The notes under the pieces are model-generated. The model was given only the letters and a program-made list of their open reading frames with translations, was not told where the DNA came from and searched no databases. A stretch of 64,000 nucleotides of DNA from a phage, in the sequence record PV467748.1. One strand, 5' to 3'. Below are positions 26,132 through 57,900 of the stretch, piece after piece. Numbering within the stretch: position 1 is the first letter of the stretch; every line of letters begins with the position of its first letter. Both the position numbers and the translations under genes were made by a program.

Positions 26132-26161
26132 ATAGTACCACATCCTTGTGGTGTTGTAAAC
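26132..26161 (-). promoter_or_regulatory. early sigma70-type promoter (GTTTAC ... TACTAT)
   Basis: Reverse complement GTTTAC, 18-nt spacer, TACTAT. Confidence 0.4.
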
Positions 26162-28284
26162 TACATTTTGAATTTATTTGATAAAGAAGAGATATCCAAA
26201 GACGCTGCAAGGATTTCCATAGCTTCGTTGCTTTCAGAAACGGATTCATTAACCAAGAATTGACTAAATCCATCCATCAGGCGAACTTCACCAGTTTCCA
26301 TCAAATGGTCACCATCGTAAACAGATTCGCTGAGCTCTGAAGGAGGTGTTACGGTAGCTTCCATAAGGTATTTGTGAGATACTCTATCATTCATGGCAAA
26401 AGCCGCTACTTTATCAACCTTCAACAATAATCCGCGCGGAAGGATAATTTCTGCTTCTTCGGCATATTCTGTAAGGTCACCAGGAGCGATAACTTTAACT
26501 GCTTCAGCACCTCGAATAACCATACCAATTTCAGCAATTCTATCTGCAGGACCTTCAGGTGCAATTGGATTACCAAACTCGTCTTCTTCCCATTCTACCT
26601 CTTCGTCATCGACTTCACCCACATCAGATGAACTACCACTAGCCAATTTAAACAACTCATCAGCTGAGGACAAAGAACCTTCACCACCAACAAAAACGGC
26701 TTGGTTGTCGAGGGCCATATAATTTTTACCGAATTCACCAAAGATGTTAGGCTTTAATGAGGCTGACACAAAGTTCTTAAAGTAAAATGTTTTGTTATCG
26801 ATATTATGGCGCAGAATTTTGTATGGCAAATCCTGACCACGATACAAAATAGTACCCTTAGGAAGTTTAATACCCTTAGTAAATGCTGAGTCTAAATCCT
26901 TAATCAATTTAATAGCCGTTGTATTGTTTTCGGATTCAGGTTTACCTAAAAGGAATAAGTTCATAGGAGCATATTCAGCCGCGCAATATTCAATAATAGC
27001 ATTGCTTTCGTCTTTGGTTAGGTCCTTAGGTTTAATGAGCTCGCCTGAATAAGCATATGCATCACTAATAGAATCGTTAACCAGTTTATAAACTGCTTCC
27101 ATAGCGAAAGCAATTCGAGAGGCCTTTTCTGAAGGGGAACCCTTAAAACGGGTACTCAGGTTATTAACAATTTTCTTAATAATATCCAGACTATTGGTTG
27201 TATTGATTTGCGAAAGACCACTTAAAAGTCTATCGACTTCTGTATTAAAAAATGCCATATTATTAGAGTAAATTTCAAACCCTTGTTTATCTCTATTAGC
27301 ATAATTTAGTTTAAATTTACTATCAGTCATTAAAGCGTGTGTGAGAGCAATAGTGTATCTAAAGTTGGCAAGGTCCTCGCTCTTAGATTTAAACTGAGAA
27401 GCCTGGCGCATTTTAGTAATAGCACCTTTTTTAAAGTTCTGGCTAATCTGTTCAATACCTTCATTCTCAGGGCCTTCAGCCGTGTGAACAGGTACAGAAG
27501 CTTCAAACTCATTATAAACCTGCAATTCTTTAGGGGACAAAGTTTCAGGTTCGGCAGTAGAATACTGCGCCGCTGCTGCCATACGACGGGAAATCTTAGT
27601 ACGGGTAATGACAGCCTTATCGGTACGTTTCTCTTCAACTTGTGCAATAGATGCCGCTACTGCTTCAACCTTACTTACGGCCTGGCCGGTTTTCTTAGAA
27701 ACATACACTTCGCCAACTTTAGACTCAACTTTAGTATAAAGATCGGCATTAATTTCAGGCATACCCTTGATATCTTCAATATTAGCACCACGACGTACTA
27801 AAAGAACGTAGGTATGTTTTCCGCTGAATTGGAACATGTCGTCAACAACTTTAAACTTACCACCGGTACGAGCCATAGCCAAACGAGCTAATACGCGCTG
27901 AACGGTAGGGCCCTTACCTTTCATTTTCTTAGTAGGGAAACGGAACAGAACTGCGTCCATTTTAAGTTTGTTTATTTGTTCGTATATGGTATCGAAAATG
28001 GTGTTCAGTGTACCAAGTGGATCGGTACCCAACCCGCCCTTGAGTTCTGCCGGAGCGCCTTTAGCTGACAAACTCATCAAAATAACATGAACATATTTGT
28101 CGCCCGGCTTAACCATTTTAATAGCGTCTCCTTGAGACGCATAAGATACCATACGAGCAACCAGATTATCATTACCTGGTGCTTGGATAGAGAAAATCTG
28201 TGGAATACCGGAACCCGGTTTAAGATTTGTTACTGGATAGTTTTTAGCGGAATCACTATCAAAAACCTCATTTAAATTTTCCAT
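26161..28284 (-). CDS. alt: Alt-like packaged mono-ADP-ribosyltransferase, paralog 1
   Basis: 707 aa; N-terminal LNE-V processing motif, PQIFS, KGGLG, RFPTKKMKG; C-terminal R/S/ExE elements (YRGQ, FVSASL, EAEIILPRG). Confidence 0.85.
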   Translation of the reverse strand: MENLNEVFDSDSAKNYPVTNLKPGSGIPQIFSIQAPGNDNLVARMVSYASQGDAIKMVKPGDKYVHVILMSLSAKGAPAELKGGLGTDPLGTLNTIFDTIYEQINKLKMDAVLFRFPTKKMKGKGPTVQRVLARLAMARTGGKFKVVDDMFQFSGKHTYVLLVRRGANIEDIKGMPEINADLYTKVESKVGEVYVSKKTGQAVSKVEAVAASIAQVEEKRTDKAVITRTKISRRMAAAAQYSTAEPETLSPKELQVYNEFEASVPVHTAEGPENEGIEQISQNFKKGAITKMRQASQFKSKSEDLANFRYTIALTHALMTDSKFKLNYANRDKQGFEIYSNNMAFFNTEVDRLLSGLSQINTTNSLDIIKKIVNNLSTRFKGSPSEKASRIAFAMEAVYKLVNDSISDAYAYSGELIKPKDLTKDESNAIIEYCAAEYAPMNLFLLGKPESENNTTAIKLIKDLDSAFTKGIKLPKGTILYRGQDLPYKILRHNIDNKTFYFKNFVSASLKPNIFGEFGKNYMALDNQAVFVGGEGSLSSADELFKLASGSSSDVGEVDDEEVEWEEDEFGNPIAPEGPADRIAEIGMVIRGAEAVKVIAPGDLTEYAEEAEIILPRGLLLKVDKVAAFAMNDRVSHKYLMEATVTPPSELSESVYDGDHLMETGEVRLMDGFSQFLVNESVSESNEAMEILAASLDISSLSNKFKM

Positions 28285-28287
28285 TAT

Positions 28288-30372
28288 TTACCCTTGGATG
28301 AATTTTTCTGGGATGTCATAGAGGTCTATGCATGAAGCCAAAAGAGGCAGTACATCAAACCGGGTAGATTTAACAAATGAATCAAAAGATACAGGGCTTT
28401 CGGAAGTATCGAAGTCATCTTGGTATACAACCAATTCACCAGTTTCCATTAGTACGTCACCATCATACACTACAGATTCTTGAAGCTCATCTGTTGTCAT
28501 AACTTCAGCTTGAATGAGTTTTGTATTATTAGATGTTGTTCCATCATTATTAGAAGCATCTGTTATTTTATTAACTTTGACCATTAATCCACGTGGTAGA
28601 ATAACTTCAGCTTCAGTTGCTATTCCGAGATTTCCTGGATATACAACATTAACTTTATGAGCACCGTCAATTGCCCATCCTATTTGAGCTTTAACGTAAT
28701 CAGGATTTTCCTTATACGCCCTTATTTCATTAGGGTTAATAGTTATTCCTTCTTCATTTTTATCGACTGTCAATTCATTGCGAACTTCCGGTTCTAAAAG
28801 ACCGATACCAGCGTGTGTAACACCAAATCGTCCAAAAATGATAGGGGTTAAAGAAGTAGATACAAAATTTCTGAAATAGAACACTTTATTTTTAACTAGT
28901 GCTTCGTATATAGGAGCAGTCATACTCTGGGCACGATAAACTGTGATGCCTTCTGGTATACGGTCGCCGTTTTCAAAAGCTGAATCTAAATTATTTATCG
29001 CAGATTCAATTTCTTTTTCACTCATTACCTCATATCGTTCTGGATTGTAGCGACCTAAAAGAAGATTATTGATGTCAGTATATCCTGAACCACAATATTC
29101 TCTGATACCACGCTTTTGTGATGGAGTATATTTAGAACCCTCACGAGCAATAGTAATATCAACCATAATACCGCCACCTACACCAGCAAAACTATAAACA
29201 CATTTTTTAATGAACTTGGTCTTAGTGGCTTTCCACTTGGACTCGGTTAATTCATTCCAGACGTCGTCAGGTTGACCTTTACGAGTTTTGTTATGCTTGG
29301 CCAACCATTTGGCTTTGTATTCTTCGAAAATGGTATTAATAGCAGAGGCATATTTTTCTAGAGCTTTAACAGATGTCAAAGGTTCGTTTTTGATGGCCGC
29401 AAGAATTTTATCTTTAATTTTCTCTTGGATTTCACCTATACCGTGAAGAGGAAACATTTTGTAATCGTAATGCAATTCTTCAGCAGTGCCTTCAGCTATT
29501 ATATTAGCAACCTTATTTTTAGCCGCAGGAGAATTGTTATTAGTAACCATTTCCTGGGCCTCAGGGATTAATGGAGCTGTTGCTGGTTTATTAAAATCCA
29601 CTGCAGTAGCTTCATATTTCTTAAACAGTTCACTTTCATTACGATAAGATTCTAACGATTGACTTGCTGCAATAGCACGACGCGAAATCTTAGTCTTGGT
29701 TATAACCATTTTATCAGTGCGACGTTCTTCAACTTTAGCAATACTGCCGGCAATAGCAGTTTCTTTAGTAACCTGCACACCTTCTTTTTTAGAAATATAA
29801 ACTTCACCGACATCAGAATCTACCTTAGTGTATAATTCGGAATTAATTCCAGGCATACCTTTGATATCTTCGATATCAGCTTGTTTACGAACTACTAGAA
29901 TATAAGTATGTTTACCAGTAAATTGGTACATAGCCGGAACTACTTTGAAGCGTCCACCTGTTTTTTGAGTTGCCAAACGTTGGATAATCCGTTGGACGAT
30001 AGGTCCTTGCCCTTTCATTTTCTTGGTTGGAAAACGGAACATCACAGCATCCATACGAAGCTTTTTAACTTGTTCGAATACTACGTCGAAAATGGTATTA
30101 ATAGCATCAATAGGAGTAGGGCCTAAGCCGCCTTTAAGTTCGGCTGGAGAACCTTTAGCTGAAAGGCTCATAAGGATAATGTGGGCGTATTTATCACCTA
30201 ATTTAACCTGTTTAATAGCATCGCCTTCAGAGGCATAAGATACCATACGAGCAACCAATTGGGATTCAGCATCGCCAATCTTCCAAATCTGGGGTACTTT
30301 AAGTTTTGGGTTTAAGTTTACAGTAGGCAGGGTGCCTTCGGACTCAAACACCTCATTCAATTGTTCGGTCAT
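28288..30372 (-). CDS. Alt-like packaged mono-ADP-ribosyltransferase, paralog 2
   Basis: 694 aa; same N-terminal module; C-terminal YRAQ, FVSTSL, EAEVILPRG. Confidence 0.85.
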   Translation of the reverse strand: MTEQLNEVFESEGTLPTVNLNPKLKVPQIWKIGDAESQLVARMVSYASEGDAIKQVKLGDKYAHIILMSLSAKGSPAELKGGLGPTPIDAINTIFDVVFEQVKKLRMDAVMFRFPTKKMKGQGPIVQRIIQRLATQKTGGRFKVVPAMYQFTGKHTYILVVRKQADIEDIKGMPGINSELYTKVDSDVGEVYISKKEGVQVTKETAIAGSIAKVEERRTDKMVITKTKISRRAIAASQSLESYRNESELFKKYEATAVDFNKPATAPLIPEAQEMVTNNNSPAAKNKVANIIAEGTAEELHYDYKMFPLHGIGEIQEKIKDKILAAIKNEPLTSVKALEKYASAINTIFEEYKAKWLAKHNKTRKGQPDDVWNELTESKWKATKTKFIKKCVYSFAGVGGGIMVDITIAREGSKYTPSQKRGIREYCGSGYTDINNLLLGRYNPERYEVMSEKEIESAINNLDSAFENGDRIPEGITVYRAQSMTAPIYEALVKNKVFYFRNFVSTSLTPIIFGRFGVTHAGIGLLEPEVRNELTVDKNEEGITINPNEIRAYKENPDYVKAQIGWAIDGAHKVNVVYPGNLGIATEAEVILPRGLMVKVNKITDASNNDGTTSNNTKLIQAEVMTTDELQESVVYDGDVLMETGELVVYQDDFDTSESPVSFDSFVKSTRFDVLPLLASCIDLYDIPEKFIQG

Positions 30373-30380
30373 AATAATTC

Positions 30381-32276
30381 CTATTTAAATAAATTTGATA
30401 ATTTTTCCATAGAATCTTCGTAAAGGATTTTATCATAACTTTCAAATGAAAGTACTGTGCTATACGAATTTTCTTCTGTGATTTGTTCAGAACCAATAAC
30501 TTCGCACTCCACCAATACGTACTTACCTATAGAACCCATAAGACCTTTAGAAGCACCATACACTTTATTAATTTTAAGCATTACGCCTCTAGGAAGAATA
30601 ACCTCAGTTTCTGTAGACCAATTTGCCAAATTACCTGGTACGATAACTTTAATTTTGTCCGCGCCTTTAATAATTAATCCAAGCTTAATTGTCTCTCTAG
30701 CACTTCCGGTTGCACTTTTAATTGTGTCTTCTAGATTATTATCTATATCGCTAGAAAGAGCTTCGGGATCTAAATTTGATTGAGCGTGTCCCATTTCGCC
30801 AAAAATATTAGGAGCTAATGAGGTAGATGCGAAAATAGGAAGATACATTACTTTATGTTTTATTGAATTCAAAGCCATTTCGGTGGGCATTATTTGAGAT
30901 CGATACACTATAGTTCCTTTAGGGAGCTTTGTACCGTTTTCAAAAGCAGAATCCATATCACCAATCATTTTTATCATTTCATCAGTAGTATCTGTTTTAC
31001 CTAATAAAAAGTTGTTAATGTGATTATATCCACCGCGAGTGTACTTTTTGATAGCCTCTTCTTGAGGTTTAGTTAAATTGGGATTGTCATCTATTTTAAA
31101 CAAAGGTTGTATAGATTTGGTATAGACTGCTACTAATGATTTTATTACTTCTTTTATTTTAGATTCTCTAGCCCATGTACCTTTAACTGAACCATCTAAA
31201 AGAGATGCGGCAACTAATCTAAGGACGTCCACATGTGTTTTACCTGATTTTAAAGCATTTATAACACCATTAGATTTATCTAAAGAATCTGATGATTCTA
31301 AAGCAAACTTTATATCTTTAATTAATTTAAGCCTATGCTCATCTATTTCAAACGACGGATTAACACCATTAAAAATATAATCTAAATATTCTGCCATTTC
31401 TTTAGAAGTATCTTTTAATACTTTAATACCGGCTGACGCTATTTGGCTTTCTTTAGAACCTTCAGAAGAATGCACTGAACTAGTAATAGATAAATCGGAG
31501 TAAACTTTTTTATGTTCTTCTGAAAATTTATTCAATCCTGACGGTTCTGATGTTGAGTATAGTGCATTTATTGCGGCTCGTTTAGAAACCTTTGTTTTGG
31601 TTATAACCATTTTATCTGAACGAGATTTTTCTATTTCATCTATAGATTTAGCTATGGCTTCTAGTTTAGTAACATCTTCACCTGTTTTCTTTGAAACATA
31701 TACATCACCAACTTCAGATTCAACTTTAGTATATAACTCAGCATTAATATTTGGGATGCCTTTTATAGATTCTATATTTTTATTTTTACGGTAGATAAAA
31801 ACATATGAATGTTTACCACTGAATTGGTACAAGGCGTCAAGGACCTTGAATTGTCCACCCGCTCTAGAAGCTATCAATTTGGCTAGGACTCTCTGTACGG
31901 TTTTTTCCTGCCCTTTCATTTTCTTGGTTGGAAAACGGAACATCACAGCATCCATACGAAGAGCTTTAATTTGTTCATAGACTATATCAAATATGGAACG
32001 AATAGCTGAAATAGGATTTGTGCCTAGCCCGCCTTTAAGTTCAGCCGGCGTACCTTTAGGAGATAGGCTCATTAAAATAACATGCACGTATTTATCACCC
32101 GGCTTAACTTGTCTAATGGCATCACCTTCTGAAGTATAAGAAACCATTCGCGCTACAAGGTTATCATTACCTTCTGCCTTTATATTCCAAATCTGTGGTA
32201 CTTTAAGTTTAGGGTTTAAATTAATAGCAGATAAATCTACATCCCCATCAAATATTTCATTTAGTTGTTCAGGCAT
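30381..32276 (-). CDS. Alt-like packaged mono-ADP-ribosyltransferase, paralog 3
   Basis: 631 aa; same N-terminal module; C-terminal YRSQ, FASTSL, ETEVILPRG. Confidence 0.85.
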   Translation of the reverse strand: MPEQLNEIFDGDVDLSAINLNPKLKVPQIWNIKAEGNDNLVARMVSYTSEGDAIRQVKPGDKYVHVILMSLSPKGTPAELKGGLGTNPISAIRSIFDIVYEQIKALRMDAVMFRFPTKKMKGQEKTVQRVLAKLIASRAGGQFKVLDALYQFSGKHSYVFIYRKNKNIESIKGIPNINAELYTKVESEVGDVYVSKKTGEDVTKLEAIAKSIDEIEKSRSDKMVITKTKVSKRAAINALYSTSEPSGLNKFSEEHKKVYSDLSITSSVHSSEGSKESQIASAGIKVLKDTSKEMAEYLDYIFNGVNPSFEIDEHRLKLIKDIKFALESSDSLDKSNGVINALKSGKTHVDVLRLVAASLLDGSVKGTWARESKIKEVIKSLVAVYTKSIQPLFKIDDNPNLTKPQEEAIKKYTRGGYNHINNFLLGKTDTTDEMIKMIGDMDSAFENGTKLPKGTIVYRSQIMPTEMALNSIKHKVMYLPIFASTSLAPNIFGEMGHAQSNLDPEALSSDIDNNLEDTIKSATGSARETIKLGLIIKGADKIKVIVPGNLANWSTETEVILPRGVMLKINKVYGASKGLMGSIGKYVLVECEVIGSEQITEENSYSTVLSFESYDKILYEDSMEKLSNLFK

Positions 32277-32517: not shown

Positions 32518-34023
32518 TTATAGTCCAGTTTGAGACCAATCGCCAAATACATCTTCAAATGTATCAGCTTCTGTTTTATCGAAACGCCAACCTTTAATAA
32601 TTGGAAGGAAAATACCTACAGTATCAGTACGTCCTTTAGAATGAACCCAACCATTACATTCGCAGTCAGCAATACGACCAATCAATTTACCTTCACGGGC
32701 TTGTTTCATAAGAAGTTCACGGTCTAAATCAGGACGGTCTTCTAATGGAATCAATACCTTTTTACCTGATTTATCTTTCTTATGGGTGGTATCTTTAAAG
32801 CCTGAGCCACAGTCACTTGTAATTCGACGACAACGTGATACCAATTCGACACCACCAAGTTTGTTAGGGTCCTTCGAGTGTTCATAATAACCCACTACTT
32901 CTAAAGCGATATCGATTACTTCTTTGAACTTGATAAGATTCTTAGAACGGCGGTTTTCCCAGTAGGAGTCCATGTTCTTAAGGATAATACCTTCCAGACC
33001 TTGGTCGACATATTTCTTATAAACGACTTTAGCTTCTTCAAGATTATTAACCCATTGCGTTTCAATAGGCTCGACACGTGTAAAGCCTTCAGCCATTTGT
33101 ACTAATGCAGCTAAACGAACATCGTATTTTTGACCTTTAATTTTGCCTTCAGAATAAACTTCATCTAACGGAACATAGTCCCATGCCTGCAATACCATAC
33201 CATCTGCTTCAGCTGGAGTAATAGTTCCTTGAAGAGCTTTATTAGCCAAACCATTTGAAGTAGAACGGTCGGCGACTGTCTGGAATTCCTTGGCTTTACT
33301 TAATTCCGGAAGTTCTTCATCAAACATACTAAACAAATCGTTAGATGCTTTAGGTTCAACTTTAGGGGTATGGTAAACTAATTCACCATCAATCATAACG
33401 CCATTAGGATGACGTTGACGAGCTTCTTCGGTCATTTTAATAAGTTCGGCTGCAAGCTTAGTAAGCCCTTGATATTCATTACCACCGCGAGTAAGGAATG
33501 TAACGCCCGAATCACGAACTTCAGCAAAACAACGAGCACCGTCAGCTTTTAATTGAGCAAACGCCGGCCATTTAATATTTTTCTTAATTAGAGCTTCGTC
33601 ATAAGAACTAGCCAACATCTGTGGTTGTTCAGGGATTAAACCTTTCCAAACCTTGTTAGCAATAGAAATCGATGCACCACATTCAAGGTCGCGCATCATT
33701 ACACGACGTAATACCTCGGCATCTGGTCCCTTAGCATCGGCAATGATTTGAGCCAGTTCTTCAATAGCAGCATTACCGGTAACCTTACGAGTAGCCAAAG
33801 TGAATTCAGCGAAATCAAGAAGGTCTTCAAGAGTAATCATACCAAAGGATTGGGACGTAAATCCAGGTTCAGGCCACTTTTTGATGCCGTAGTTCAGACG
33901 ACGGGTATACGCCATACGATAAACGCGTTTCAGAAGCTCATTGTCCTTTTCACGAGCAATAATAGCTTCTTTAGCTTTAGTAGAATCAATAGAAGCAATT
34001 TCGTTTAAAATATCTAAAATCAT
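32518..34023 (-). CDS. 30: ATP-dependent DNA ligase
   Basis: 501 aa; KADG adenylation motif (QLKADGARCF); similarity to T4 gp30. Confidence 0.95.
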   Translation of the reverse strand: MILDILNEIASIDSTKAKEAIIAREKDNELLKRVYRMAYTRRLNYGIKKWPEPGFTSQSFGMITLEDLLDFAEFTLATRKVTGNAAIEELAQIIADAKGPDAEVLRRVMMRDLECGASISIANKVWKGLIPEQPQMLASSYDEALIKKNIKWPAFAQLKADGARCFAEVRDSGVTFLTRGGNEYQGLTKLAAELIKMTEEARQRHPNGVMIDGELVYHTPKVEPKASNDLFSMFDEELPELSKAKEFQTVADRSTSNGLANKALQGTITPAEADGMVLQAWDYVPLDEVYSEGKIKGQKYDVRLAALVQMAEGFTRVEPIETQWVNNLEEAKVVYKKYVDQGLEGIILKNMDSYWENRRSKNLIKFKEVIDIALEVVGYYEHSKDPNKLGGVELVSRCRRITSDCGSGFKDTTHKKDKSGKKVLIPLEDRPDLDRELLMKQAREGKLIGRIADCECNGWVHSKGRTDTVGIFLPIIKGWRFDKTEADTFEDVFGDWSQTGL

Positions 34024-34923: not shown

Positions 34924-35387
34924 AATAAATCTCTCAATTTGTTTAGGATGTCGATAAACTCTTTTTCAGTTAGTATTGTATCACATTCTGTAAGGTGGCT
35001 TGCCATTGAATGCTTTAAAACCTTACCTTTAGCGGCTTGTAACGCATCTCGGAATCCTTTGTTCTGGAGCGCTGCTTCAAAATATGCATTTGTATACAAC
35101 TCTTTCCATGCTGCAGAGTATCTTGAAAAGGGAATTCCAAGCCAGAAAAGCGTCCCACGGTCCGCAGCTCTTGCATAAGCTCTTCCACTTTGCTGGGCGG
35201 CCAATCCGGACATCCCAAATATACGTTTTTGTTGTTCAATATTTTTCACCTTACACCCTTGGAGGAATCCTTCGAGTCCACCAAATTGGATACCATCCAT
35301 AACGAAAGGCCATTTAGCAAAGTTACTTAATGCGCATGATGGCCACGGAAAGTTACTTCTAATTTCTAACTCAGACATCTTTGACAC
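34920..35387 (-). CDS. NADAR (YbiA-like) domain protein, candidate ADP-ribose glycohydrolase
   Basis: 155 aa; LSNFAKWPFVMDGIQFGGLEGFLQGCK matches the YbiA/NADAR signature (SNFAAWP..DG....EHYFQAQK). Confidence 0.65.
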   Translation of the reverse strand: MSKMSELEIRSNFPWPSCALSNFAKWPFVMDGIQFGGLEGFLQGCKVKNIEQQKRIFGMSGLAAQQSGRAYARAADRGTLFWLGIPFSRYSAAWKELYTNAYFEAALQNKGFRDALQAAKGKVLKHSMASHLTECDTILTEKEFIDILNKLRDLL

Positions 35388-35583
35388 TTATAATTTCGAC
35401 ATCGGCCCAATGCCCGTAACCAGGCAGACGGTCTTTAATAGATAATCCACCGTCAGACTTCAGCATTTTAATTGTTTTGGTATACGGTTCATCTTGTGGT
35501 TGCACAGGAGATAAATCAGTTACACGATAAGTCACTTCGACCATTTCCGTACCTAATAATTTCTGAATCAGTTTCTTAAACAT
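35371..35583 (-). CDS. hypothetical protein
   Basis: 70-aa ORF in an operon-like array. Confidence 0.4.
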   Translation of the reverse strand: MFKKLIQKLLGTEMVEVTYRVTDLSPVQPQDEPYTKTIKMLKSDGGLSIKDRLPGYGHWADVEIISVKDV

Positions 35584-35584
35584 G

Positions 35585-35779
35585 TTATCCTCGCTTTAAA
35601 CATTTGATTACGGACAGTTCAGAACCCATACGAACGTCTTCAGTTCCATCGACCCATAGGACGGTGTAGGCTTCTTTAATAGTAGCATTACCTAATTTAA
35701 AAGCAGGTAGAACCTTTGAAATCATACCAGGAATACCTACACCTTTTAATTGGACTGTTTGTGATAAGAATAGTTGCAT
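35585..35779 (-). CDS. hypothetical protein
   Basis: 64-aa ORF, tightly packed. Confidence 0.4.
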   Translation of the reverse strand: MQLFLSQTVQLKGVGIPGMISKVLPAFKLGNATIKEAYTVLWVDGTEDVRMGSELSVIKCLKRG

Positions 35780-36066
35780 TAGAACCTCATCTGAAAGCCA
35801 TGGGATTTAACATTACCACCATAGATGTCAGAGGTATTGACTTCACGGGCGACACTTGGGTCGATGTTAATATCATGGTTGAGCTTAGTGATTGCTAGGG
35901 TGTCACGACCATTAACAGTACGGAATTCTACTGGACATACAACATCGGCATAAGCCTTAATGGATTCACGAGTAGGCTGTTTGTCAGCAGGAACATCTTT
36001 ACTTGCCTTAGAGAAAACAACTTCACAGAAATTTTTACGAGTATCGAAATAAGTGGTCATAAACAT
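35779..36066 (-). CDS. hypothetical protein
   Basis: Start moved to internal Met after GAGGAA SD (MFMTTYF...). Confidence 0.45.
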   Translation of the reverse strand: MFMTTYFDTRKNFCEVVFSKASKDVPADKQPTRESIKAYADVVCPVEFRTVNGRDTLAITKLNHDINIDPSVAREVNTSDIYGGNVKSHGFQMRF

Positions 36067-36081
36067 AATATTTTCCTCAAT

Positions 36082-36097
36082 GGAGGCCGAAGCCTCC
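36082..36097. other. stable stem-loop GGAGGC-CGAA-GCCTCC
   Basis: Perfect 6-bp stem with a CGAA loop between two - strand genes. Confidence 0.5.
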
Positions 36098-36107
36098 ATT
36101 TTTAAGA

Positions 36108-36473
36108 TTAGATATCGAATTCATTCAGAACTACATCAAAGATTGCTTCCAGGTGTTCAGGTTTAGCTCGGTTGCTCAGGATGTGACGAATCCAGGTTTT
36201 AACCAGAAGCTTACGATTAGAACCGTTCCAGCAAGGATGGGTACCTAAATCACGTTGACGGAAATCGTCATCTAAAGCGATTTTAAAAGTAGAACCTTCC
36301 ATAGTGATTGAAACCGTAATACCATTTTCAAAGCGCATGTAAACGTAGTTAGGAGTCATGCACTGTTCGATTTCACACACTGTACCGTTTTCGTGTTTCC
36401 ACAGGCAAATAACTTCGGAAGAACCAGCGATACCGTTAGAAACATATTTACGTTCGAAGTTGATGTAGTTCAT
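36108..36473 (-). CDS. hypothetical protein
   Basis: Start at MNYINFERK after GGAGAATAAAA SD; shares its leader with the next gene upstream. Confidence 0.5.
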   Translation of the reverse strand: MNYINFERKYVSNGIAGSSEVICLWKHENGTVCEIEQCMTPNYVYMRFENGITVSITMEGSTFKIALDDDFRQRDLGTHPCWNGSNRKLLVKTWIRHILSNRAKPEHLEAIFDVVLNEFDI

Positions 36474-36510
36474 TTTTATTCTCCAGTTTGTTTTCGTATT
36501 ATTTGGTACA
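36474..36510 (-). repeat. conserved promoter-proximal leader cassette, copy 1
   Basis: Near-identical to 36881-36917 (ttattctccagtttgttttcgtattatttggtaca). Confidence 0.7.
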
Positions 36511-36515
36511 GCTCT

Positions 36516-36545
36516 ATAATAACACAACCTGTACCAAAGTAAAAC
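36516..36545 (-). promoter_or_regulatory. early-type promoter with -10 inside the inverted repeat GGTACAG/CTGTACC
   Basis: Reverse complement GTTTTAC ... TATTAT; followed by the shared leader. Confidence 0.4.
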
Positions 36546-36547
36546 AT

Positions 36548-36880
36548 TTATTTCACAACATTCCAATTTTTCATATCAAGTTTACCAACTTTTTTCATCT
36601 GAGCAATCAGACGTTCAGCGCGTGTACGGGCATTAACGTAATAGAATTCACCAATTTTGTTTTCTTCAATACGACCAGTAATTACAGTTTTCAGTTCATA
36701 AATCCAACCTGTAAAGAAGTTGTGAAGCTCGATGGTAAATGTGAAATCAGTACCCATACCTTCAGTTGTTTCAACTTCGATGATATCACCTTCAACTGCA
36801 GTCAGGACCCACATGGTTTCTTGATATCCACCGTTGAAACATTTAGCTTTAACAGATGCATTCAGATTTACAGTTTTCAT
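36548..36880 (-). CDS. hypothetical protein
   Basis: 110 aa; leader identical to that of the 36108-36473 gene. Confidence 0.5.
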   Translation of the reverse strand: MKTVNLNASVKAKCFNGGYQETMWVLTAVEGDIIEVETTEGMGTDFTFTIELHNFFTGWIYELKTVITGRIEENKIGEFYYVNARTRAERLIAQMKKVGKLDMKNWNVVK

Positions 36881-36917
36881 TTTATTCTCCAGTTTGTTTT
36901 CGTATTATTTGGTACAT
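36881..36917 (-). repeat. conserved promoter-proximal leader cassette, copy 2
   Basis: Near-identical to 36474-36510. Confidence 0.7.
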
Positions 36918-36921
36918 GTCT

Positions 36922-36950
36922 ATAGTATCATGCCTACCGGAGATGTACAC
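36922..36950 (-). promoter_or_regulatory. early-type promoter (GTGTAC, 17-nt spacer, TACTAT)
   Basis: Directly downstream of a - strand terminator. Confidence 0.45.
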
Positions 36951-36978
36951 CTTTTTTTTAAGATTTAGAAACAAAAAT

Positions 36979-36996
36979 GGGACTCCGAAGAGTCCC
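36979..36996 (-). terminator. intrinsic terminator
   Basis: GGGACTC-CGAA-GAGTCCC followed by ATTTTTGTTTCT on the - strand. Confidence 0.65.
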
Positions 36997-37001
36997 ATAA
37001 C

Positions 37002-37163
37002 TTATGCCTGAGGCTTACCAAAGCAAGCAGCATCTGCACGCAATACTGCACGAGCACGAGCTTGAAGCTTATCAACTACCTGATTGATACGCTTGTTGGA
37101 CGCACGCTTGTAACCAGCGCGTTTAGAGGTACCGTCAACTACTTTAACTTCTTTCTTAGCCAT
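37002..37163 (-). CDS. small basic protein (53 aa), below the ORF-track cutoff
   Basis: Hand translation MAKKEVKVVDGTSKRAGYKRASNKRINQVVDKLQARARAVLRADAACFGKPQA; followed by a terminator. Confidence 0.4.
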   Translation of the reverse strand: MAKKEVKVVDGTSKRAGYKRASNKRINQVVDKLQARARAVLRADAACFGKPQA

Positions 37164-37319
37164 TTTTAAATCTCTTAAATTAGGATGCAGGACTTATTGG
37201 CGTTGCCTGCGCAAGCCCTCAAGGGGAACATAGGTTTTGGATATTTAACGACAGGATAACCATAAACCTCGTCATCATACCAACCACGACTTAGACAGAT
37301 AACCTTTTTCTGACGCGTG

Positions 37320-37348
37320 ATAGTACAAAATACATTCAAGAGGTACAC
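37320..37348 (-). promoter_or_regulatory. early-type promoter (GTGTAC, 17-nt spacer, TACTAT) with a long leader
   Basis: Reverse complement GTGTACCTCTTGAATGTATTTTGTACTAT; about 150 nt upstream of the 37163 start. Confidence 0.4.
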
Positions 37349-37426
37349 CGTAAAACTGTTGGGGTCTTAAAACTATAATGATTCGCAAATCATTAATCAA
37401 ACAGTTCGACGGCTCCTCGATTTAAT

Positions 37427-37675
37427 TTACTTCAGGGTAATAATAAAATGACGTACTGCTTTACGAGCTGCTGAAGCCAAAGGCTTAGCAAATTTCAGTT
37501 CATCTTTAGCTTCCAGTTCAGCAGCCAGAGTAGCCTGAGCAGGATTCAGATGTTTGAAATAACGCAGGATTTCCAGTGCTTCGGCTTCGACATCAATAGA
37601 TGCGCCGTAGTTTTCGTGACCGTTGTTCCAAGCGTTGCGTTGCAGTTCAAGAGCGTGATTCAATTGTTTGTTCAT
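37427..37675 (-). CDS. rIII: rIII lysis-inhibition accessory protein
   Basis: 82 aa; same length and position as T4 rIII, adjacent to gene 31. Confidence 0.8.
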   Translation of the reverse strand: MNKQLNHALELQRNAWNNGHENYGASIDVEAEALEILRYFKHLNPAQATLAAELEAKDELKFAKPLASAARKAVRHFIITLK

Positions 37676-37821
37676 TTTAGTTTCTCAATTCGAGATAAAG
37701 ATTGGTGGACACGTTCTTCTGAATTTCACTTCCTTTCGGCAAGTCTCTCAGTTGTAGTCCACCGCTTAGGATTCTCCGGTTAACTAACTAGTCCGGCAGC
37801 CAATCCATATTATTATTTATA

Positions 37822-38145
37822 TCACTTATAAAGACACGGAATAGCTTTATAGTGACAGGTAACGAATTTCTGTTTAATTTCTTTAGGTTGCTTAATACCG
37901 AGCGCAACTAAAGGATGAGGCACGTTAGCAATCTTACCAACAGGAAGTGGAGTCAAATCACCTACTTCACAAAAACCTTCAGGGACATCAGGTCCTACAG
38001 AATAAATTTCACAAAGTTCGGGGATTTCACCTTGATGAAGCTTGCCAATAACGATACCAGATGCAGTAGTTTCTTCATCGCCAGCTTGTTTTGGTTCGGA
38101 AACGAGAATAACATATTCTCCGACCGCTTTAATAGGAAGTTCCAT
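37822..38145 (-). CDS. 31: co-chaperonin (GroES-like) for capsid folding
   Basis: 107 aa; near-identical C-terminal half to T4 gp31 ([24 protein letters not shown]...[17 protein letters not shown]). Confidence 0.92.
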
Positions 38146-38176
38146 ATTTAATCCATATTGTTTTGTTGATAGATTA

Positions 38177-38203
38177 ATAATAACACGCTATTCTTAAAGC
38201 ATA
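38177..38203 (-). promoter_or_regulatory. candidate MotA-dependent middle promoter for gene 31
   Basis: Reverse complement ATGCTTTAAG (MotA-box-like TGCTTtA), 12 nt, TATTAT. Confidence 0.35.
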
Positions 38204-38503
38204 TTACAGGACAAGCAGAGTTTCAGTCTGAAGCCCGTTAATAGAAATCAGTTTATCGAAACGGAACGAGCGCCAGTCATTAACCTTGGTATCAAATACT
38301 CTGATGTAATTAACAGGTTCTTTATTGGCTTCAGGCCCAGGGGCCTGGACTTCTTTATATGGAAGCAGGTCTAAGTCACGTGTACAAGTCATACGACGGG
38401 CACTACCATCAGCCTTTTCAAACAGAACTTCGTGAAAGCCTACAGACAAAATAGTCTTGACTTTTTCACGCAGACGAATAGTTTCTTGTTCAGTTAAAAT
38501 CAT
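38204..38503 (-). CDS. hypothetical protein
   Basis: 99-aa ORF between 31 and cd. Confidence 0.5.
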   Translation of the reverse strand: MILTEQETIRLREKVKTILSVGFHEVLFEKADGSARRMTCTRDLDLLPYKEVQAPGPEANKEPVNYIRVFDTKVNDWRSFRFDKLISINGLQTETLLVL

Positions 38504-48938: not shown

Positions 48939-50620
<1,682 letters not shown>

Positions 50621-50645
50621 TTTATTCTCCTTAGTTGACAAGGCT

Positions 50646-50675
50646 ATAGTATCACTACCATAGCCTGATGTAAAC
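50646..50675 (-). promoter_or_regulatory. early promoter (GTTTAC ... TACTAT) inside inverted repeat AGGCTAT/ATAGCCT
   Basis: Cassette family member. Confidence 0.45.
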
Positions 50676-50903
50676 TTATTTTTGAATTAAGCCCATATAA
50701 AATTTAGCGTCTTCCGGGTGCATACCGTCACAATACTCGCCAGCCATAAAGCGGGTAAGGTCTTCAAGAGGACCTTGAACTTCAATTTGCATACTACAGA
50801 ATTGTGTGTCTTTGATATAAGTCATAGTCAAAGAAGGATAACTATTACGGATAACTTCGTAAGTGTATTCAAAATCAACGATATCAATATTAACTTTAGC
50901 CAT
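50676..50903 (-). CDS. hypothetical protein
   Basis: 75 aa; GAGGAAAATAAAATG initiation region. Confidence 0.45.
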
Positions 50904-50932
50904 TTTATTTTCCTCATGTAGTTGATAGGTCT

Positions 50933-50961
50933 ATAGTATCATGACTACAGACCTTGTAAAC
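50933..50961 (-). promoter_or_regulatory. early promoter GTTTAC-17-TACTAT
   Basis: Cassette family member; leader nearly identical to 51616-51652. Confidence 0.5.
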
Positions 50962-50963
50962 AC

Positions 50964-51224
50964 TTATTTTTGAATTTTATCGAGCCACTTACCGAGTTTA
51001 ATCATTTCTTTGGTAGCTTTTTCCATACTTCTGAATTTAACCAGTAAAGGTTGGGCATCAACACCCATAACTAAGCTGGTTACAAGACTATGTTCACCTA
51101 CAAGCCATAAAGAATACGTTTGAATATCGAGCCCGTAATTTCGGTCTTTATGGACCCGTACACCCATCACTTCAAATTTCTCACTGGCTTTTTCTACTGC
51201 ATCCAGGAAATCATCTTTAGTCAT
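50964..51224 (-). CDS. hypothetical protein (start uncertain)
   Basis: ORF downstream of the 129-aa gene. Confidence 0.4.
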   Translation of the reverse strand: MTKDDFLDAVEKASEKFEVMGVRVHKDRNYGLDIQTYSLWLVGEHSLVTSLVMGVDAQPLLVKFRSMEKATKEMIKLGKWLDKIQK

Positions 51225-51225
51225 A

Positions 51226-51615
51226 TTAGGCCTTAAAAGTTTTTTGCAAAAGTTCAATGATTTGGTCAACGTTCTGTTCGGTGACAATGCAATGGATTTG
51301 AGTCACACCTGCCTTAGCAATAGGCGCATCGATTTCTTTATCTTCCACAACATATTCACGGAAGCAATAGAACTCATCTTCGTGCAATTCAAAATAATTT
51401 GGCGCTAACCCAACTTCATTATAAATCTCGCCGTTAGCGCATTCGATTTCAGTCACAAATTTGTCGCCATCCATGGTCAACATATCCTTTACTTCAAACC
51501 AACCGCCGTTGTCTTGGATAAGGTCGACCATGCTTTTATTATTTTCATATTCGTCCATTTCAATAAAGTCTTTAATGCATTCAGGGCGAAGTTCGTATTT
51601 TTTACCGATTTCCAT
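51226..51615 (-). CDS. hypothetical acidic protein
   Basis: 129 aa; cassette promoter/leader upstream. Confidence 0.5.
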   Translation of the reverse strand: MEIGKKYELRPECIKDFIEMDEYENNKSMVDLIQDNGGWFEVKDMLTMDGDKFVTEIECANGEIYNEVGLAPNYFELHEDEFYCFREYVVEDKEIDAPIAKAGVTQIHCIVTEQNVDQIIELLQKTFKA

Positions 51616-51644
51616 TTTTATTTCCTCATGTAGTTGATAGGTCT

Positions 51645-51673
51645 ATAGTATCATGTTTAAAGGCATTGTAAAC
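51645..51673 (-). promoter_or_regulatory. early promoter GTTTAC-17-TACTAT
   Basis: Cassette family member. Confidence 0.5.
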
Positions 51674-51725
51674 CATTAAGTGCCAAAAAGGGAAGACCGA
51701 AGTCTTCCCATTATAAATCAATAAC

Positions 51726-52631
51726 TTATAGACCAGCTAACAAATCGTCCAGGCCGTCGTCATCAGAAGGACTTACTGATGGTTCAGGAGTAGTGGAACG
51801 AGTTGGTGTAGACGGTTTGGAATCATAGGCATCAAGGTCTGCACTGAATGCGTCCAGGTCATCACCAATCTTATCAGCAGCTGCAGAAGCTTTAGCGGCA
51901 GCACCACCAAGAGCAGCAGTACCAACAACTTTCTTAAACTTGGCTTCGTTAGTTTCGAACGATTTGAACTCGAGCAGTTTAGAAAGGTCGTGCATTTCTT
52001 CCATCAATTTGGCTTGGTAAGCTTCATCATTGATGTTAGGAATTTCAGACTGGCCCATGAATTTGGAATCGTCGTAGTTTTTGAAGTCGCCAACTTTCTT
52101 AGATTTCAGTACGAAGTTCGCACCATCAAACGGACATGTTACGTCAACCGGCACTTCACCGATATCAGTATCAACTTCAACCATCTGGTTGATTTTATCC
52201 ATAATTTTCTGACCGAAACGGAATTTAAACACTTTACCTTCGTTAGCAGGCACTGCACTATCCTTAATAACAAGGATGTTAGCCCAGAAGGAAGTTTTAC
52301 GTTTCATCAGCTTGTATTCGGCATTATTAGTATTATACGTATCGTTCTGGTTCATGTATTTACATACAGGACAAGAATCGAAATCACCGTGAGTAGACGT
52401 ACAGTTTTCAATATACCATTGACCATTTTTCTTAAAGCCGTGGTTAACGAGCTTAATGAATGGAGATGGATTTTCTTCGTTTTTCGAAGGTAGGAAACGA
52501 ATTACCGCAGTACCAACACCGTTGTCATCTTTCAATTTCCATTCAGCTTTATCATCGGAAGAGAAAGAAGAACCACCTTTCATTGCAGACAGTTGAGCAG
52601 CCAGTTGGGAAGGGTCTTTACGTTTAAACAT
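51726..52631 (-). CDS. 32: single-stranded DNA-binding protein
   Basis: 301 aa; near-identical N-terminus and zinc-binding region vs T4 gp32; acidic C-terminal tail. Confidence 0.95.
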
Positions 52632-54988: not shown

Positions 54989-57900
54989 ATGGCCGATATT
55001 TTAAAACCTGCATTCCGTGCTACATCCGGACTCGATGCTGCGGGCGAGAAAGTTATCAATGTTGCCAAAGCCGATTACAATGTATTAGATGATGGCGTCA
55101 ACGTTGAATTCTTTATAGATGAGAACACCATCCAGGCGTACGACGAGACGCGCGGATATAAGAAAGGGTTTGCAGTAATCCATGACCAACGTATCTGGGT
55201 TGCTCAACGTGATATCGATGCTCCAGCAGGAACCTTTGTACCTGGTTATTGGACTGCTACCCGTACTGACCCTAAATGGATTACTGTAGCATCTCCTACA
55301 CGCCAGCTGGCTTCCGGTGAATATATTGCTGTGGATTCCGCTGCTAGCTTTACCACATTTACCCTGCCTCCTAACCCTACTGATGGCGATACCGTTGTAA
55401 TTAAAGATATCGGCGGTCGTGTAGGTTATAATGAAATCAAGGTCCAATCTAGTTCTGCTCCAGGTGGTGGTAATCAGAAAATTGTCCGTTTTGGTAACCA
55501 GTTCACTGAGACCTTAATTACGAAGCCTTTTTCCTATAATATGATTATCTTTGCCAACCGTCTTTGGCATTTCTGGGAATCAGGTAATGAAGAACGTGGT
55601 ATCCGTGTAGAACCTAACACCGCTCAGTTCCAAGCTCAAGCAGGCGATAATGTTCTCCGTCGTTATACTTCAGGTGCAGTAATTAAGTTTACTCTTCCTA
55701 AGTATGCGAACCAAGGTGATATTATTAAAACCGCTGATATCGATGGTTTAGGAAGTAAGTTCCACTTAATTGTTGAAACGTTTGATGCTTCATCTTCATT
55801 AGGTAAGCTTGGTCAGCATAGCATGGAATTCCGTACCTCCGGCGATGGATTCTTTGTTTATAACTCTACCGAAAAATTATGGTACGTTTGGGACGGCGAC
55901 CTTAAAACCCGTTTACGTGTAATTCGCGATGATGTTGAGCTCTTGGCTAACGAAAGTGTTATTGTTTTTGGCCCTAATAATACAACACCACAGACGATTA
56001 ATATCACATTACCTACAGGCGTAGCCCAGGGTGATGTCGTTAAGATTGCTCTGAACTATCTCCGTAAAGCTCAGACGGTAAATATTAAGGCTGCCGTAGG
56101 AGATAAAATAGCTTCTTCGGTTCAATTGCTCCAGTTCCCTAAACGTTCTGAATATCCGCCAGATACTGAATGGGTTCTGAATGACGTATTGACCTTCAAT
56201 GGCAACTTAAGTTATACTCCGGTTATTGAACTTAGCTATATAGAAGACACCGCTACAGGTGGCAAATATTGGGTTGTTGCTCAGAACGTTCCTACTATAG
56301 AACGTGTGGATTCTAAGGACGATTTAACCCGTGCTCGCCTCGGTGTTATTGCTCTGGCGTCACAAACGCAAGCAAACGTCGACCATGAAAATAATCCTGA
56401 AAAAGAACTTGCAATTACTCCACAGACTTTAGCTAATCGTGTAGCGACTGAATCTCGTCGTGGTATTGCTCGTATTGCTACTACTGCTCAGGTGAACCAG
56501 GATACAACCTTCGCATTCCAGGACGATTTAATTATTTCTCCTAAGAAATTAAACGAACGTACTGCAACCGAAACTCGTCGTGGTGTTGCTGAAATTGCTA
56601 CGCAAGTTGAAACTGATGCCGGCATAGATGATACCACAATCATCACTCCTAAGAAGCTACAAGCGCGCCAGGGTTCGGAAAGTCTTTCAGGTATTGTAAC
56701 ATATACCTCTACCGTAGGAACCACTCCTGCGACTGCTAGAGACACTGTAGGTACTAACGTTTATAATAAGAACGTAGGCAATTTGGTTATTTCTCCTAAA
56801 GCACTTGACCAGTATAAAGCTACTCAAGTTCAACAGGGTACAGTATATCTTTCTAACCAATCCGAAGTTAACGCAGGTCAATCTGCAAGTGGATTTGCTA
56901 ACAGTGCTGTTTCTCCTGAAACATTACATGCTCGTGTGGCTCTTGATACTCGTACAGGGTTAATTGAAATTGCTACGCAACAGGAAACTGATACCGGAAC
57001 AGATTATACTCGTGCAGTAACGCCTAAAACGTTAAATGATAGGAAAGCTACGGAAGGATTGACTGGTATTGCTAGAATTGCAACACAGGTAGAATTTGAT
57101 GCAGGTACGTTAGATAATGTTATTTCAACTCCGTTGAAAATTAAAACAAGATTTAATGATACTGCTAGAACTTCTGTCTCAGCAGCCAGTGGTTTGGTTG
57201 AATCAGGAACCTTATGGAACCATTATACACTAGATATTAGAGAAGCAAATGAGACTCAACGTGGTACTGCTCGCCTGGCGACCCAGACCGAAGTCAACGT
57301 TGGTACCGATGATAAAACCATCATCACTCCTTTGAAATTACACTCTAAAAAATCTACTGAAAGCTCTGAAGGTATTATTCGTGTTGCAACGAATACCGAA
57401 ACAACCGCAGGAACTTCTAAAGTTTTGGCTGTAAGCCCTTCTGGTTTAAAATATGTAGTACAGACCGAAACCACTTGGGAAGCTACTGCACTTCGTCGTG
57501 GATTTGTTAAACTAACCGAAGGTGCTTTAACCCATTCAGGAAATAAAGTTACCGGTTCCGGTGTTAAATTTAACTCAGGTACAGGCCTTTATGAGAACGA
57601 TGATACTGTTCTGAACGCAGCGAACTATCCTAAAACGGGTTATGCGGTTTCATCTTACGAGATGAATAAAACCTTACAGAACTTTTTACCTATAAATGCT
57701 ACGGCTGTGAACTCCGAGAAATTAGATGGCCTAGATTCACTCCAGTTCATTCGTAGAGACGTCGACCAAACGGTTAATGGTTCTTTAACCCTGGCCAAAC
57801 AATTGAACCTGGCGGCTCCTCTGGTGTCTTCTAGTACTGCTAATATTACCGGCAACACTATTTTAGGTTCTCTGGAAGTAACCGGGAATTCTACTTTTAA

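Follow-up and report, generated by a model that had tools for sequence, protein, structure and literature searches.

Promoter-early-stem-loop elements (PeSLs) of T4-like phages have been described in RB49 and phi1 (Arbiol et al. 2010, PMC2839356) and in PST/T4 and nt-1/KVP40 (Comeau et al. 2014, PMC4122927), and a stem-loop that overlaps the -10 box is among the commonest of their published subclasses. For the T4/PST group, the early promoter consensus of these elements is TTTACW..N17..TAYWAT. Here, we describe two tandem elements that resemble PeSLs in a 64-kb stretch of phage DNA (sequence record PV467748.1, referred to as the window), where they precede the neighboring small genes 30.8 and 30.7 on the minus strand and share a near-identical leader. 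Neither of the two PeSL papers (PMC2839356, PMC4122927) mentions the 30.7/30.8 locus, or Dhakavirus, the genus of the window phage, at this locus. As cited in PMC9409239 and PMC1702504, Truncaite et al. 2006 (Virology 344:378) addressed the region upstream of DNA ligase gene 30 in T4-type phages.

Our reading of the locus, to which we assign a probability of roughly 0.75, is that two tandem PeSL-type cassettes ahead of 30.8 and 30.7 have been homogenized by copying and bound an exchangeable 30.8. The orthologous T4 region was reportedly characterized experimentally by Truncaite and colleagues, with two early promoters, a terminator, a stem-loop and RegB sites ahead of 30.8 and 30.7. T4 differs from the window in that its two leaders share only GGAGAATAAAA(A)TG; the long identity is found in Dhakavirus and, independently, in some other genera.

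Repeated Leader Ahead of 30.8 and 30.7

An earlier note on this DNA had claimed that both genes follow an almost identical leader of about 37 nt and proposed comparing the window with itself as a check, and this comparison confirmed the pair. The window contains exactly two copies of the 37-nt pattern TGTACCAAATAATACGAAAACAAACTGGAGAATAAAA, at 36474–36510 and 36880–36916, both on the minus strand, and a search allowing up to three mismatches returned no third match in the window (shuffle expectation of 0.00). A repeat search extends the pair to 51 nt with 92% identity and a spacing of 406 nt. Copy A (36880–36930, minus strand, exact core 36880–36916) includes the -10 box, the leader and GGAGAATAAAA at 36880–36890, and ends at the 30.8 ATG (36878–36880); copy B (36474–36524, minus strand, exact core 36474–36510) has the same composition, with GGAGAATAAAA at 36474–36484, and ends at the 30.7 ATG (36471–36473). 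The likeness thus runs from the -10 box to the start codon, and the -35 boxes and spacers of the two cassettes are unlike.

The repeat was found in all 45 of the matching Dhakavirus records, and the exact leader is present in two copies per genome in Dhakavirus as well as in Marfa-like phages. Some Dhakavirus copies carry point changes, with a mid-leader G altered to T or A, that are unmatched in the partner copy. The number of megablast places per record misses second copies with one central mismatch and is unusable for detecting deletion variants.

One explanation for the repeat is that the likeness is a general extended consensus of early promoters and translation starts, resulting from functional convergence and not from copying. 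Other early promoters of the window do share long stretches (TGATACTATAGACCTATCAACTACATGAGGA), and the 3′ 11–13 nt of the leader (GGAGAATAAAATG) are a functional consensus. The 25-nt stretch that separates the -10 region from the ribosome-binding site (TGTACCAAATAATACGAAAACAAAC), however, is found at only two sites in the window with up to three mismatches allowed, the 30.8/30.7 leader is unlike the leaders of other early promoters, and the orthologous leaders in other genera differ in sequence, making convergence highly improbable. The identity of the repeat appears to reflect neither chance nor a general promoter consensus and, judged from these comparisons, is best explained by copying.

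Gene 30.8 (36548–36880, minus strand; 110 aa; Pfam Phage_30_8, E = 4.6e-48) forms the module between the two repeats, and gene 30.7 (36108–36473, minus strand; 121 aa; Pfam Phage_T4_Gp30_7, E = 4.1e-52) follows the second. The earlier description of the two as unrelated genes is accurate in that BLASTP produced no alignment between gp30.8 and gp30.7 even at E ≤ 100; they are not orphans, however, but conserved and syntenic T4 genes. Sequence searches of the PDB with gp30.7 and gp30.8 returned zero matches. The tandem, co-oriented arrangement and similar length of the two units (110 and 121 aa) could be taken as the remnant of a tandem duplication of promoter plus gene in which the coding regions have since diverged. 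This is even less probable than convergence: the proteins have no detectable similarity and belong to different Pfam families, a 100% identical leader beside dissimilar coding sequence contradicts the prediction of shared descent, and the two leaders of T4 are unlike.

The surrounding region, 35000–38500, matches Dhakavirus coliphages over its full length with 93–98% nucleotide identity, including fDHCT2 (the closest relative of the window phage), WG01, IME281, Bp7, QL01, KIT01 and others, and IME08 covers 87% of it; the window phage is a Dhakavirus of the JS98/Bp7/IME08 group. Genes are ordered as in T4 and are all located on the minus strand (31, rIII, 30.9, 30.8, 30.7, 30.6 ... 30). Gene 30.7 is 90–100% identical across the Dhakavirus, Tequatrovirus, Mosigvirus and Gaprivervirus relatives compared. 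The upstream neighbor of 30.8 is gene 30.9 (37002–37163, minus strand; 53 aa), an open reading frame (ORF) with a match to PHROG 1427 whose homologue is annotated as 30.9 in IME08 and T4.

Exchange and Loss of 30.8 in Related Phages

Comparison of the flanks in relatives, proposed in the earlier note as a second check, places the change in 30.8 between the two cassettes. Phages in which gp30.9 and gp30.7 are 97–100% identical to those of the window encode a gp30.8 that is either 96–100% identical or only 37–39% identical, the latter being a 122-aa allele. IME08 carries this 122-aa allele in place of the window 30.8 (39% identity), and alignment of the window with IME08 gives 93–100% identity on both sides and 33–60% only from approximately 36870 to 36545, which is the 30.8 ORF. 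The IME08 30.8 ORF is approximately 93% identical to 30.8 of the Gaprivervirus phages SP18 and VR20, whose upstream promoter and leader are unrelated to those of IME08 except for ACTGGAGAATAAAATG. An equally precise replacement of the 30.8 ORF is found in Tequatrovirus, between T4 and 101117BS1.

Two phages are without 30.8. In T2, a T4-type terminator, P30.8 and 30.8 leader lead directly to the 30.7 ATG, with the junction inside the shared GGAGAATAAA(A)ATG; alignment of T4 with T2 gives a precise gap of approximately 400 nt between the two ribosome-site/ATG sequences. In TuIa (record AJ621579, which we take to belong to the Truncaite body of work), a 30.8 cassette is fused at the corresponding point, next to the 30.7 ATG. 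The TuIa fusion carries a Mosigvirus-type cassette, which indicates a second deletion event, independent of that in T2.

Genes have also been added at the cassette borders. One or two extra genes lie between 30.8 and 30.7 in Jiaodavirus and in other Klebsiella, Citrobacter and Enterobacter phages. In SP18, the extra gene is 30.6A, which separates 30.9 from 30.8 and has a terminator-like hairpin on either side. At this SP18 locus (L025, 1360–1860), the hairpins that bracket 30.6A, GGGACTCTTCGGAGTCCC and GACTCCTTCGGGAGTC, are similar, and only a ribosome-binding site lies ahead of the gene; in TuIa, 30.6A is located after 30.7, and a 204-aa gene after 30.7 in Mosigvirus LF82-4 is probably 30.6A. 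The SP18 arrangement may represent gene displacement at hairpin-plus-ribosome-site junctions instead of promoters.

Leader Likeness Within and Between Lineages

Concerted evolution of the two leaders was measured by the longest exact word common to both upstream regions, with the ribosome site excluded; this replaced a matrix of gapped identities, which was noisy through register shifts. Within a genome, this word measures 25 nt in the window, 33 nt in Jiaodavirus, 26 nt in a Marfa-like phage, 22 nt in a Moon-like phage and 15 nt in locus L039, and between lineages its median is 6.5–8 nt with a maximum of 17 nt. Since leaders in approximately five lineages are alike within the genome and unlike between lineages, the cassettes appear to have been made alike repeatedly, each time with another sequence, a pattern in the pairs that indicates concerted evolution as far as it can be read from the sequences. 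Local gene conversion would be the simplest cause of this recurrent likeness, and selection for co-regulation its main rival. In Marfa-like phages, the two copies of the exact leader are approximately 1.5 kb apart with two inserted genes between them; the three to six "places" at which the Marfa-type leader was matched probably represent weaker hits, which may lie at other early promoters, and not a dispersed family.

It is possible, although we consider it doubtful, that the leaders were re-homogenized repeatedly and independently in at least four to five genera (Dhakavirus, Jiaodavirus, Marfa-like, Moon-like and L039-type), with a lineage-specific sequence each time, and that in Jiaodavirus the 5′ arm of the hairpin at P30.7 followed the new leader. 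In that genus, the 5′ arm (TTGGGTGGT) matches the lineage-specific leader (ACCACCCAA). Copying in the direction from 30.7 to 30.8 is favored by the first 10 nt of the leader, which supply the conserved P30.7 hairpin with its 3′ arm; counter to this direction, the Mosigvirus 30.8 leader resembles the Dhakavirus leader roughly as much as any 30.7 leader does.

The recurrence of lineage-specific identity in about five lineages, its persistence across approximately 1.5 kb and two inserted genes in Marfa-like phages, and the restriction of the pair to one locus without dispersal would also be expected if the leaders were held identical by selection. The stretch from +1 to the ribosome site, as RNA or as DNA, would then act as a cis-regulatory site, through protein or small RNA binding, translation efficiency or decay, that matches gp30.8 and gp30.7 in timing and in level, with recombination as the means only. 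We regard this as improbable, as T2 and TuIa do without 30.8, the leader has neither predicted structure nor an Rfam match, the point changes between copies in some Dhakaviruses are uncompensated, and the leaders of T4, SP18, Mosigvirus and CC31 are dissimilar, with a longest shared word of only 5–7 nt.

Predicted Promoters of the Two Cassettes

On the coding strand, cassette 1 consists of the 30.9 stop codon, a UUCG terminator, A8, GTGTAC, TGn-TACTAT, the leader and GGAGAATAAAATG, followed by gene 30.8. Cassette 2 consists of the 30.8 stop codon in an AT-rich run, GTTTTAC, a spacer with TTTGGTACAG, TGn-TATTAT, CTGTACCAAA, the shared leader and GGAGAATAAAAATG, followed by gene 30.7. The predicted early promoter P30.8 (36922–36959, minus strand) includes the A8 tract (36952–36959) that forms the AT-rich part of its cassette, a -35 box GTGTAC (36945–36950), TGn (36928–36930) and a -10 box TACTAT (36922–36927), with transcription predicted to start near 36915. 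The predicted P30.7 (36516–36550, minus strand) includes a -35 box (G)TTTTAC (36539–36545), TGn (36522–36524) and a -10 box TATTAT (36516–36521), with a predicted start near 36509, and the AT-rich tract ahead of it (GAAATAAATG) contains the 30.8 stop codon (36548–36550). In both cassettes, GGAG is located 6–7 nt ahead of the ATG.

Both promoters combine an AT-rich or A-tract with a GT(T/G)TAC -35 box, TGn and TAYWAT, as do approximately ten other sites in the window; the geometry of P30.8 matches these sites, whose leaders differ. As in the other early promoters of the window, the spacer of both is 16 nt and not 17 nt, and P30.8 departs from the consensus at one position of its -35 box. P30.8 is orthologous to an early promoter annotated in the T4 relative SA21RB, and P30.7 is conserved from T4 through Klebsiella phages. 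The claim of an early-type promoter ahead of each gene is upheld in that the T4-type early pattern is present at both, although a generic sigma-70 scan reported only P30.7 (TTTACT-16-TATTAT with TG) and did not report P30.8. Early promoters of T4 are very strong, combining an UP element with a -35 box, a TGn motif and a -10 box, and unmodified host polymerase uses them (PMC2988021).

Terminator and Hairpins

The stem-loop of cassette 1 is an intrinsic terminator after 30.9 (36966–37000, minus strand) with the stem AUGGGACUC-UUCG-GAGUCCCAU followed by UUUUUGUUU. A terminator scan located its hairpin at 36977–36998, with 9 pairs, a loop of 4 and a T-run, and its fold has a free energy of -16.2 kcal/mol (z = -5.4; 0/200 shuffles as stable). 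The strong terminator that had been noted directly upstream of the 30.8 cassette is therefore present, and it is kept in all relatives compared. The suggestion that it is part of the duplicated cassette fails, however: there is no terminator of the 30.9 type between 30.8 and 30.7 in the window, so that only cassette 1 follows a terminator, and the stem-loop of cassette 2 is a different one that overlaps the -10 box.

This second stem-loop, identified by RNA folding, is an inverted repeat (TTTGGTACAG ... CTGTACCAAA) across the P30.7 -10 box (36502–36538, minus strand), whose 3′ arm makes up the opening 10 nt of repeat copy B. Folding of the read-through RNA (-18.7 kcal/mol overall, z = -2.6) gives two hairpins, of which this is one, and a 65-nt slice with this hairpin alone folds with -12.6 kcal/mol (z = -2.6). 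A hairpin at the P30.7 position was found in 13 of the 13 genomes compared, with differing sequences and z from -1.4 to -7.6, reaching -16 to -17 kcal/mol in T4, SP18, Mosigvirus and IME08, whereas P30.8, with its terminator upstream, has no such hairpin across its -10 box in the genomes compared by folding. The SA21RB record annotates the P30.7 hairpin as a terminator overlapping the promoter; among the hairpins of this locus in the window, a T-run is present only at the 36966–37000 terminator, and those at P30.7 and after 30.7 are without one. The latter is a UUCG-loop hairpin (36079–36100, minus strand; -16.6 kcal/mol, z = -3.9) that closes the two-gene unit and is followed by GAGGAAAA and the ATG of the adjoining 30.6-like gene (35779–36066, minus strand), a layout matched in T4, T2, SP18, a Mosigvirus and a Jiaodavirus.

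Two further observations concern the P30.7 hairpin. In its 3′ arm, the window has AGC at 36511–36513 (minus strand) where all close relatives, including fDHCT2, have ACC, reducing a perfect inverted repeat of 12 bp (TTTGGTACAGGT/ACCTGTACCAAA) to 10 bp and the stability of the hairpin from approximately -17 to -12.6 kcal/mol. In a Citrobacter Moon-like phage (L031), a metagenomic locus (L036) and Enterobacter phage CC31 (L040), CTCCGTTGTAT pairs with ATACAACGGAG across the P30.7 -10 box, approximately 60 nt upstream of the 30.7 ATG at position 2501. This hairpin has -20 to -23 kcal/mol (z = -6 to -7.6) and its 3′ arm covers the 30.7 GGAG; the ribosome-binding/RegB site would be buried on read-through RNA, such that only RNA started at P30.7 would be translatable.

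In long transcripts of the T4 genes e, soc, 49 and I-TevI, a hairpin conceals the ribosome-binding site, which becomes accessible when transcription starts at a promoter within that hairpin. The 30.7 locus resembles these genes in that P30.7 lies between the hairpin arms in every lineage examined and, in CC31-like and Moon-like phages, in that the 3′ arm covers the 30.7 GGAG; it differs in that the internal promoter is early, not late. In the window, the 3′ arm is at the 5′ end of the leader, approximately 18 nt upstream of the ribosome-binding site, so the site would not be hidden, unlike in e, soc, 49 and I-TevI.

Unstructured Leaders and Predicted RegB Sites

Both leaders are predicted to be essentially unstructured, with minimum free energies of -0.7 kcal/mol (leader A, z = +1.9) and -0.6 kcal/mol (leader B, z = +1.6); 198/200 and 194/200 shuffles, respectively, fold better. 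An Rfam scan of 35500–37800 at E ≤ 1 returned no match. Efficient cleavage by RegB with S1 needs 11 nt of single-stranded RNA made up of GGA and an A-rich tail (GGAGRAYARAA; T4 optimum GGAGAAUAAAA) (Durand et al. 2006, PMC1702504), and the T4 30.7 mRNA is an experimentally used, standard RegB substrate (PMC9409239). As at the T4 sites, each leader ends in this exact 11-nt consensus (DNA GGAGAATAAAA, at 36474–36484 and 36880–36890), predicted to be single-stranded and placed as the ribosome-binding site. GGAGAATAAAA has three occurrences in the window against 0.06 expected, two of which are these.

A RegB homologue is encoded by fDHCT2 and IME540, identified by tblastn of phage records with 58% identity to T4 RegB (E = 2e-49 for fDHCT2); a pattern-based RegB search of IMG/VR retrieved no Dhakavirus contigs. 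The regB gene is located outside the 64-kb window. Cleavage at the window sites is a prediction.

Comparison with Described PeSLs

The composite layout of both elements, with a stop codon or AT-rich tract, a sigma-70-like early promoter, a stem-loop, a ribosome-binding site and an ATG, consists of the published parts of PeSLs, and so agrees with the PeSL-style reading of the earlier note. Of the five subclasses in the literature, the stem-loops represent two by position, one upstream within the AT-rich region and one across the -10 box, and what lies between the elements is a small non-essential gene that close relatives have replaced or lost. The mini-circle crossovers described for PeSLs likewise map between the ribosome-binding site and the -10 box. 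The locus differs from the described systems in that its stems are not of the RB49 polyG/polyC type, that the identity between copies is in the transcribed leader and not in the stem-loop or AT-rich part, and that the near-identical copies form one local pair and not a genome-wide family. At the level of sequence, the cassettes thus appear to have every feature of PeSLs and, in part, the genome-wide family: the window has approximately twelve early-promoter cassettes, including a second cluster at 50.6–51.7 kb, and the near-identical leader is present only as the 30.8/30.7 pair. The notion of mobile modular cassettes accordingly holds in that the pair is a substrate for homologous recombination, but not in the sense of a near-identical leader scattered over the window.

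Proposed Mechanism

We propose that host sigma-70 RNA polymerase would start at the T4-type early promoter of each cassette to produce an A-rich leader of approximately 35–40 nt without secondary structure, the final 11 nt of which (GGAGAAUAAAA) would serve as the ribosome-binding site and as the exact RegB/S1 target. Each small gene would be expressed at once in a strong burst and then shut off through a RegB cut within GGAG. The 30.9 terminator would insulate cassette 1 from upstream transcription; cassette 2 has no terminator, and the hairpin arms flank its own -10 box. As RNA started at P30.7 would be without the 5′ arm of the hairpin, only read-through RNA from 30.8 could form it, suggesting a possible role of the hairpin on that transcript.

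The identity of 37–51 nt from the -10 box to the ATG would arise by copying between the cassettes, through gene conversion or unequal homologous recombination, an exchange that the -10 region and GGAGAATAAAATG, common to both, could have anchored. The cassettes would provide short patches of homology around the 30.8 ORF, at which recombination may swap, delete or add genes with the expression signals intact, and recombination between the two cassettes would be predicted to yield a circle or deletion of 406 bp, the spacing of the repeat.

Several observations weigh against this account. The within-genome likeness of only 5–7 nt in T4, SP18, Mosigvirus and CC31 implies that identity of the leaders is not needed for function, and selection for co-regulation might also account for the lineage-specific identity found in several genera. 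The restriction of the near-identical leader to a single tandem pair at one locus appears more in keeping with local gene conversion than with a dispersed mobile element. Genes 30.8 and 30.7 keep their T4 order everywhere, and hence there is no free shuffling. P30.8 (TGTACA-16-TACTAT with the TGn extension) scores only 8 of 12 against the E. coli consensus, and its -35 box is GTGTAC (GTATAC in JS98, loci L003/L010) rather than GTTTAC. Finally, the proposed transcription starts, RegB cuts and recombination events draw on sequence and on work with T4.

Other Features of the Window

A second cluster of tandem early-promoter cassettes is found at 50600–51720 (minus strand), with promoters at approximately 51673, 50961 and 50675, each ahead of a small ORF, and it begins with a UUCG terminator hairpin. 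The ORF upstream of it (51726–52631) we take to be the gene 32 homologue. Copies at 50900–50966 and 51612–51678 have 87% identity over 67 nt. Two upstream ORFs in this cluster both end in ATTCAAAAATAAG, such that the AT-rich element upstream of the promoter overlaps their last codons (...IQK*), and the third cassette has an exact GGAGAATAAAA site at 50620–50630.

Beside the DNA ligase gene 30 (32518–34023), three tandem paralogous genes encoding 707, 694 and 631 aa are located at 26161–32276 (minus strand), with repeated blocks of 69–73% nucleotide identity. Each encodes an ADP-ribosyltransferase domain (Pfam ADPrib_exo_Tox), and from their sequences they resemble a row of three Alt-like enzymes. 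A 68-nt unit is present in five copies with 60–71% identity at 56414–57282 (plus strand), within the 1347-aa proximal long-tail-fiber gene (ORF 54989–59032; Pfam Gp34_2nd); the copies are presumably a repeated structural motif of gp34.

The gap of approximately 260 nt between rIII and 30.9 (37164–37426, minus strand) contains no convincing ORF and no Rfam match, and the fold of this ORF-free gap (37160–37430) is ordinary (z = -1.0). In distant relatives, a long-range GGGAGC...GCTCCC pairing is found directly upstream of 30.9.

Significance for T4-Like Phages

The 30.8/30.7 locus is a clean, fully bounded natural case of the exchange of a small accessory gene in T4-like phages with expression signals unbroken. 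Sequenced phages represent three states, with one of two 30.8 alleles or no 30.8, and the breakpoints are at the promoter and the ribosome-binding site. Knowledge of PeSLs themselves is unchanged by the finding, to which recurrent homogenization across genera adds a modest extra. The 406-bp unit with its direct repeats of 37–51 nt is a convenient test case for the mini-circle/deletion model, and the 30.8 unit could serve as a safe insertion site for the engineering of Dhakaviruses. If the leaders have indeed been re-homogenized repeatedly, this would imply recurrent directed gene conversion between neighboring early cassettes, possibly nucleated by the hairpin, or selection for identical 30.8 and 30.7 5′ untranslated regions, and the same 406-bp unit would be a simple natural system in which to measure cassette-mediated recombination in T4-like phages.

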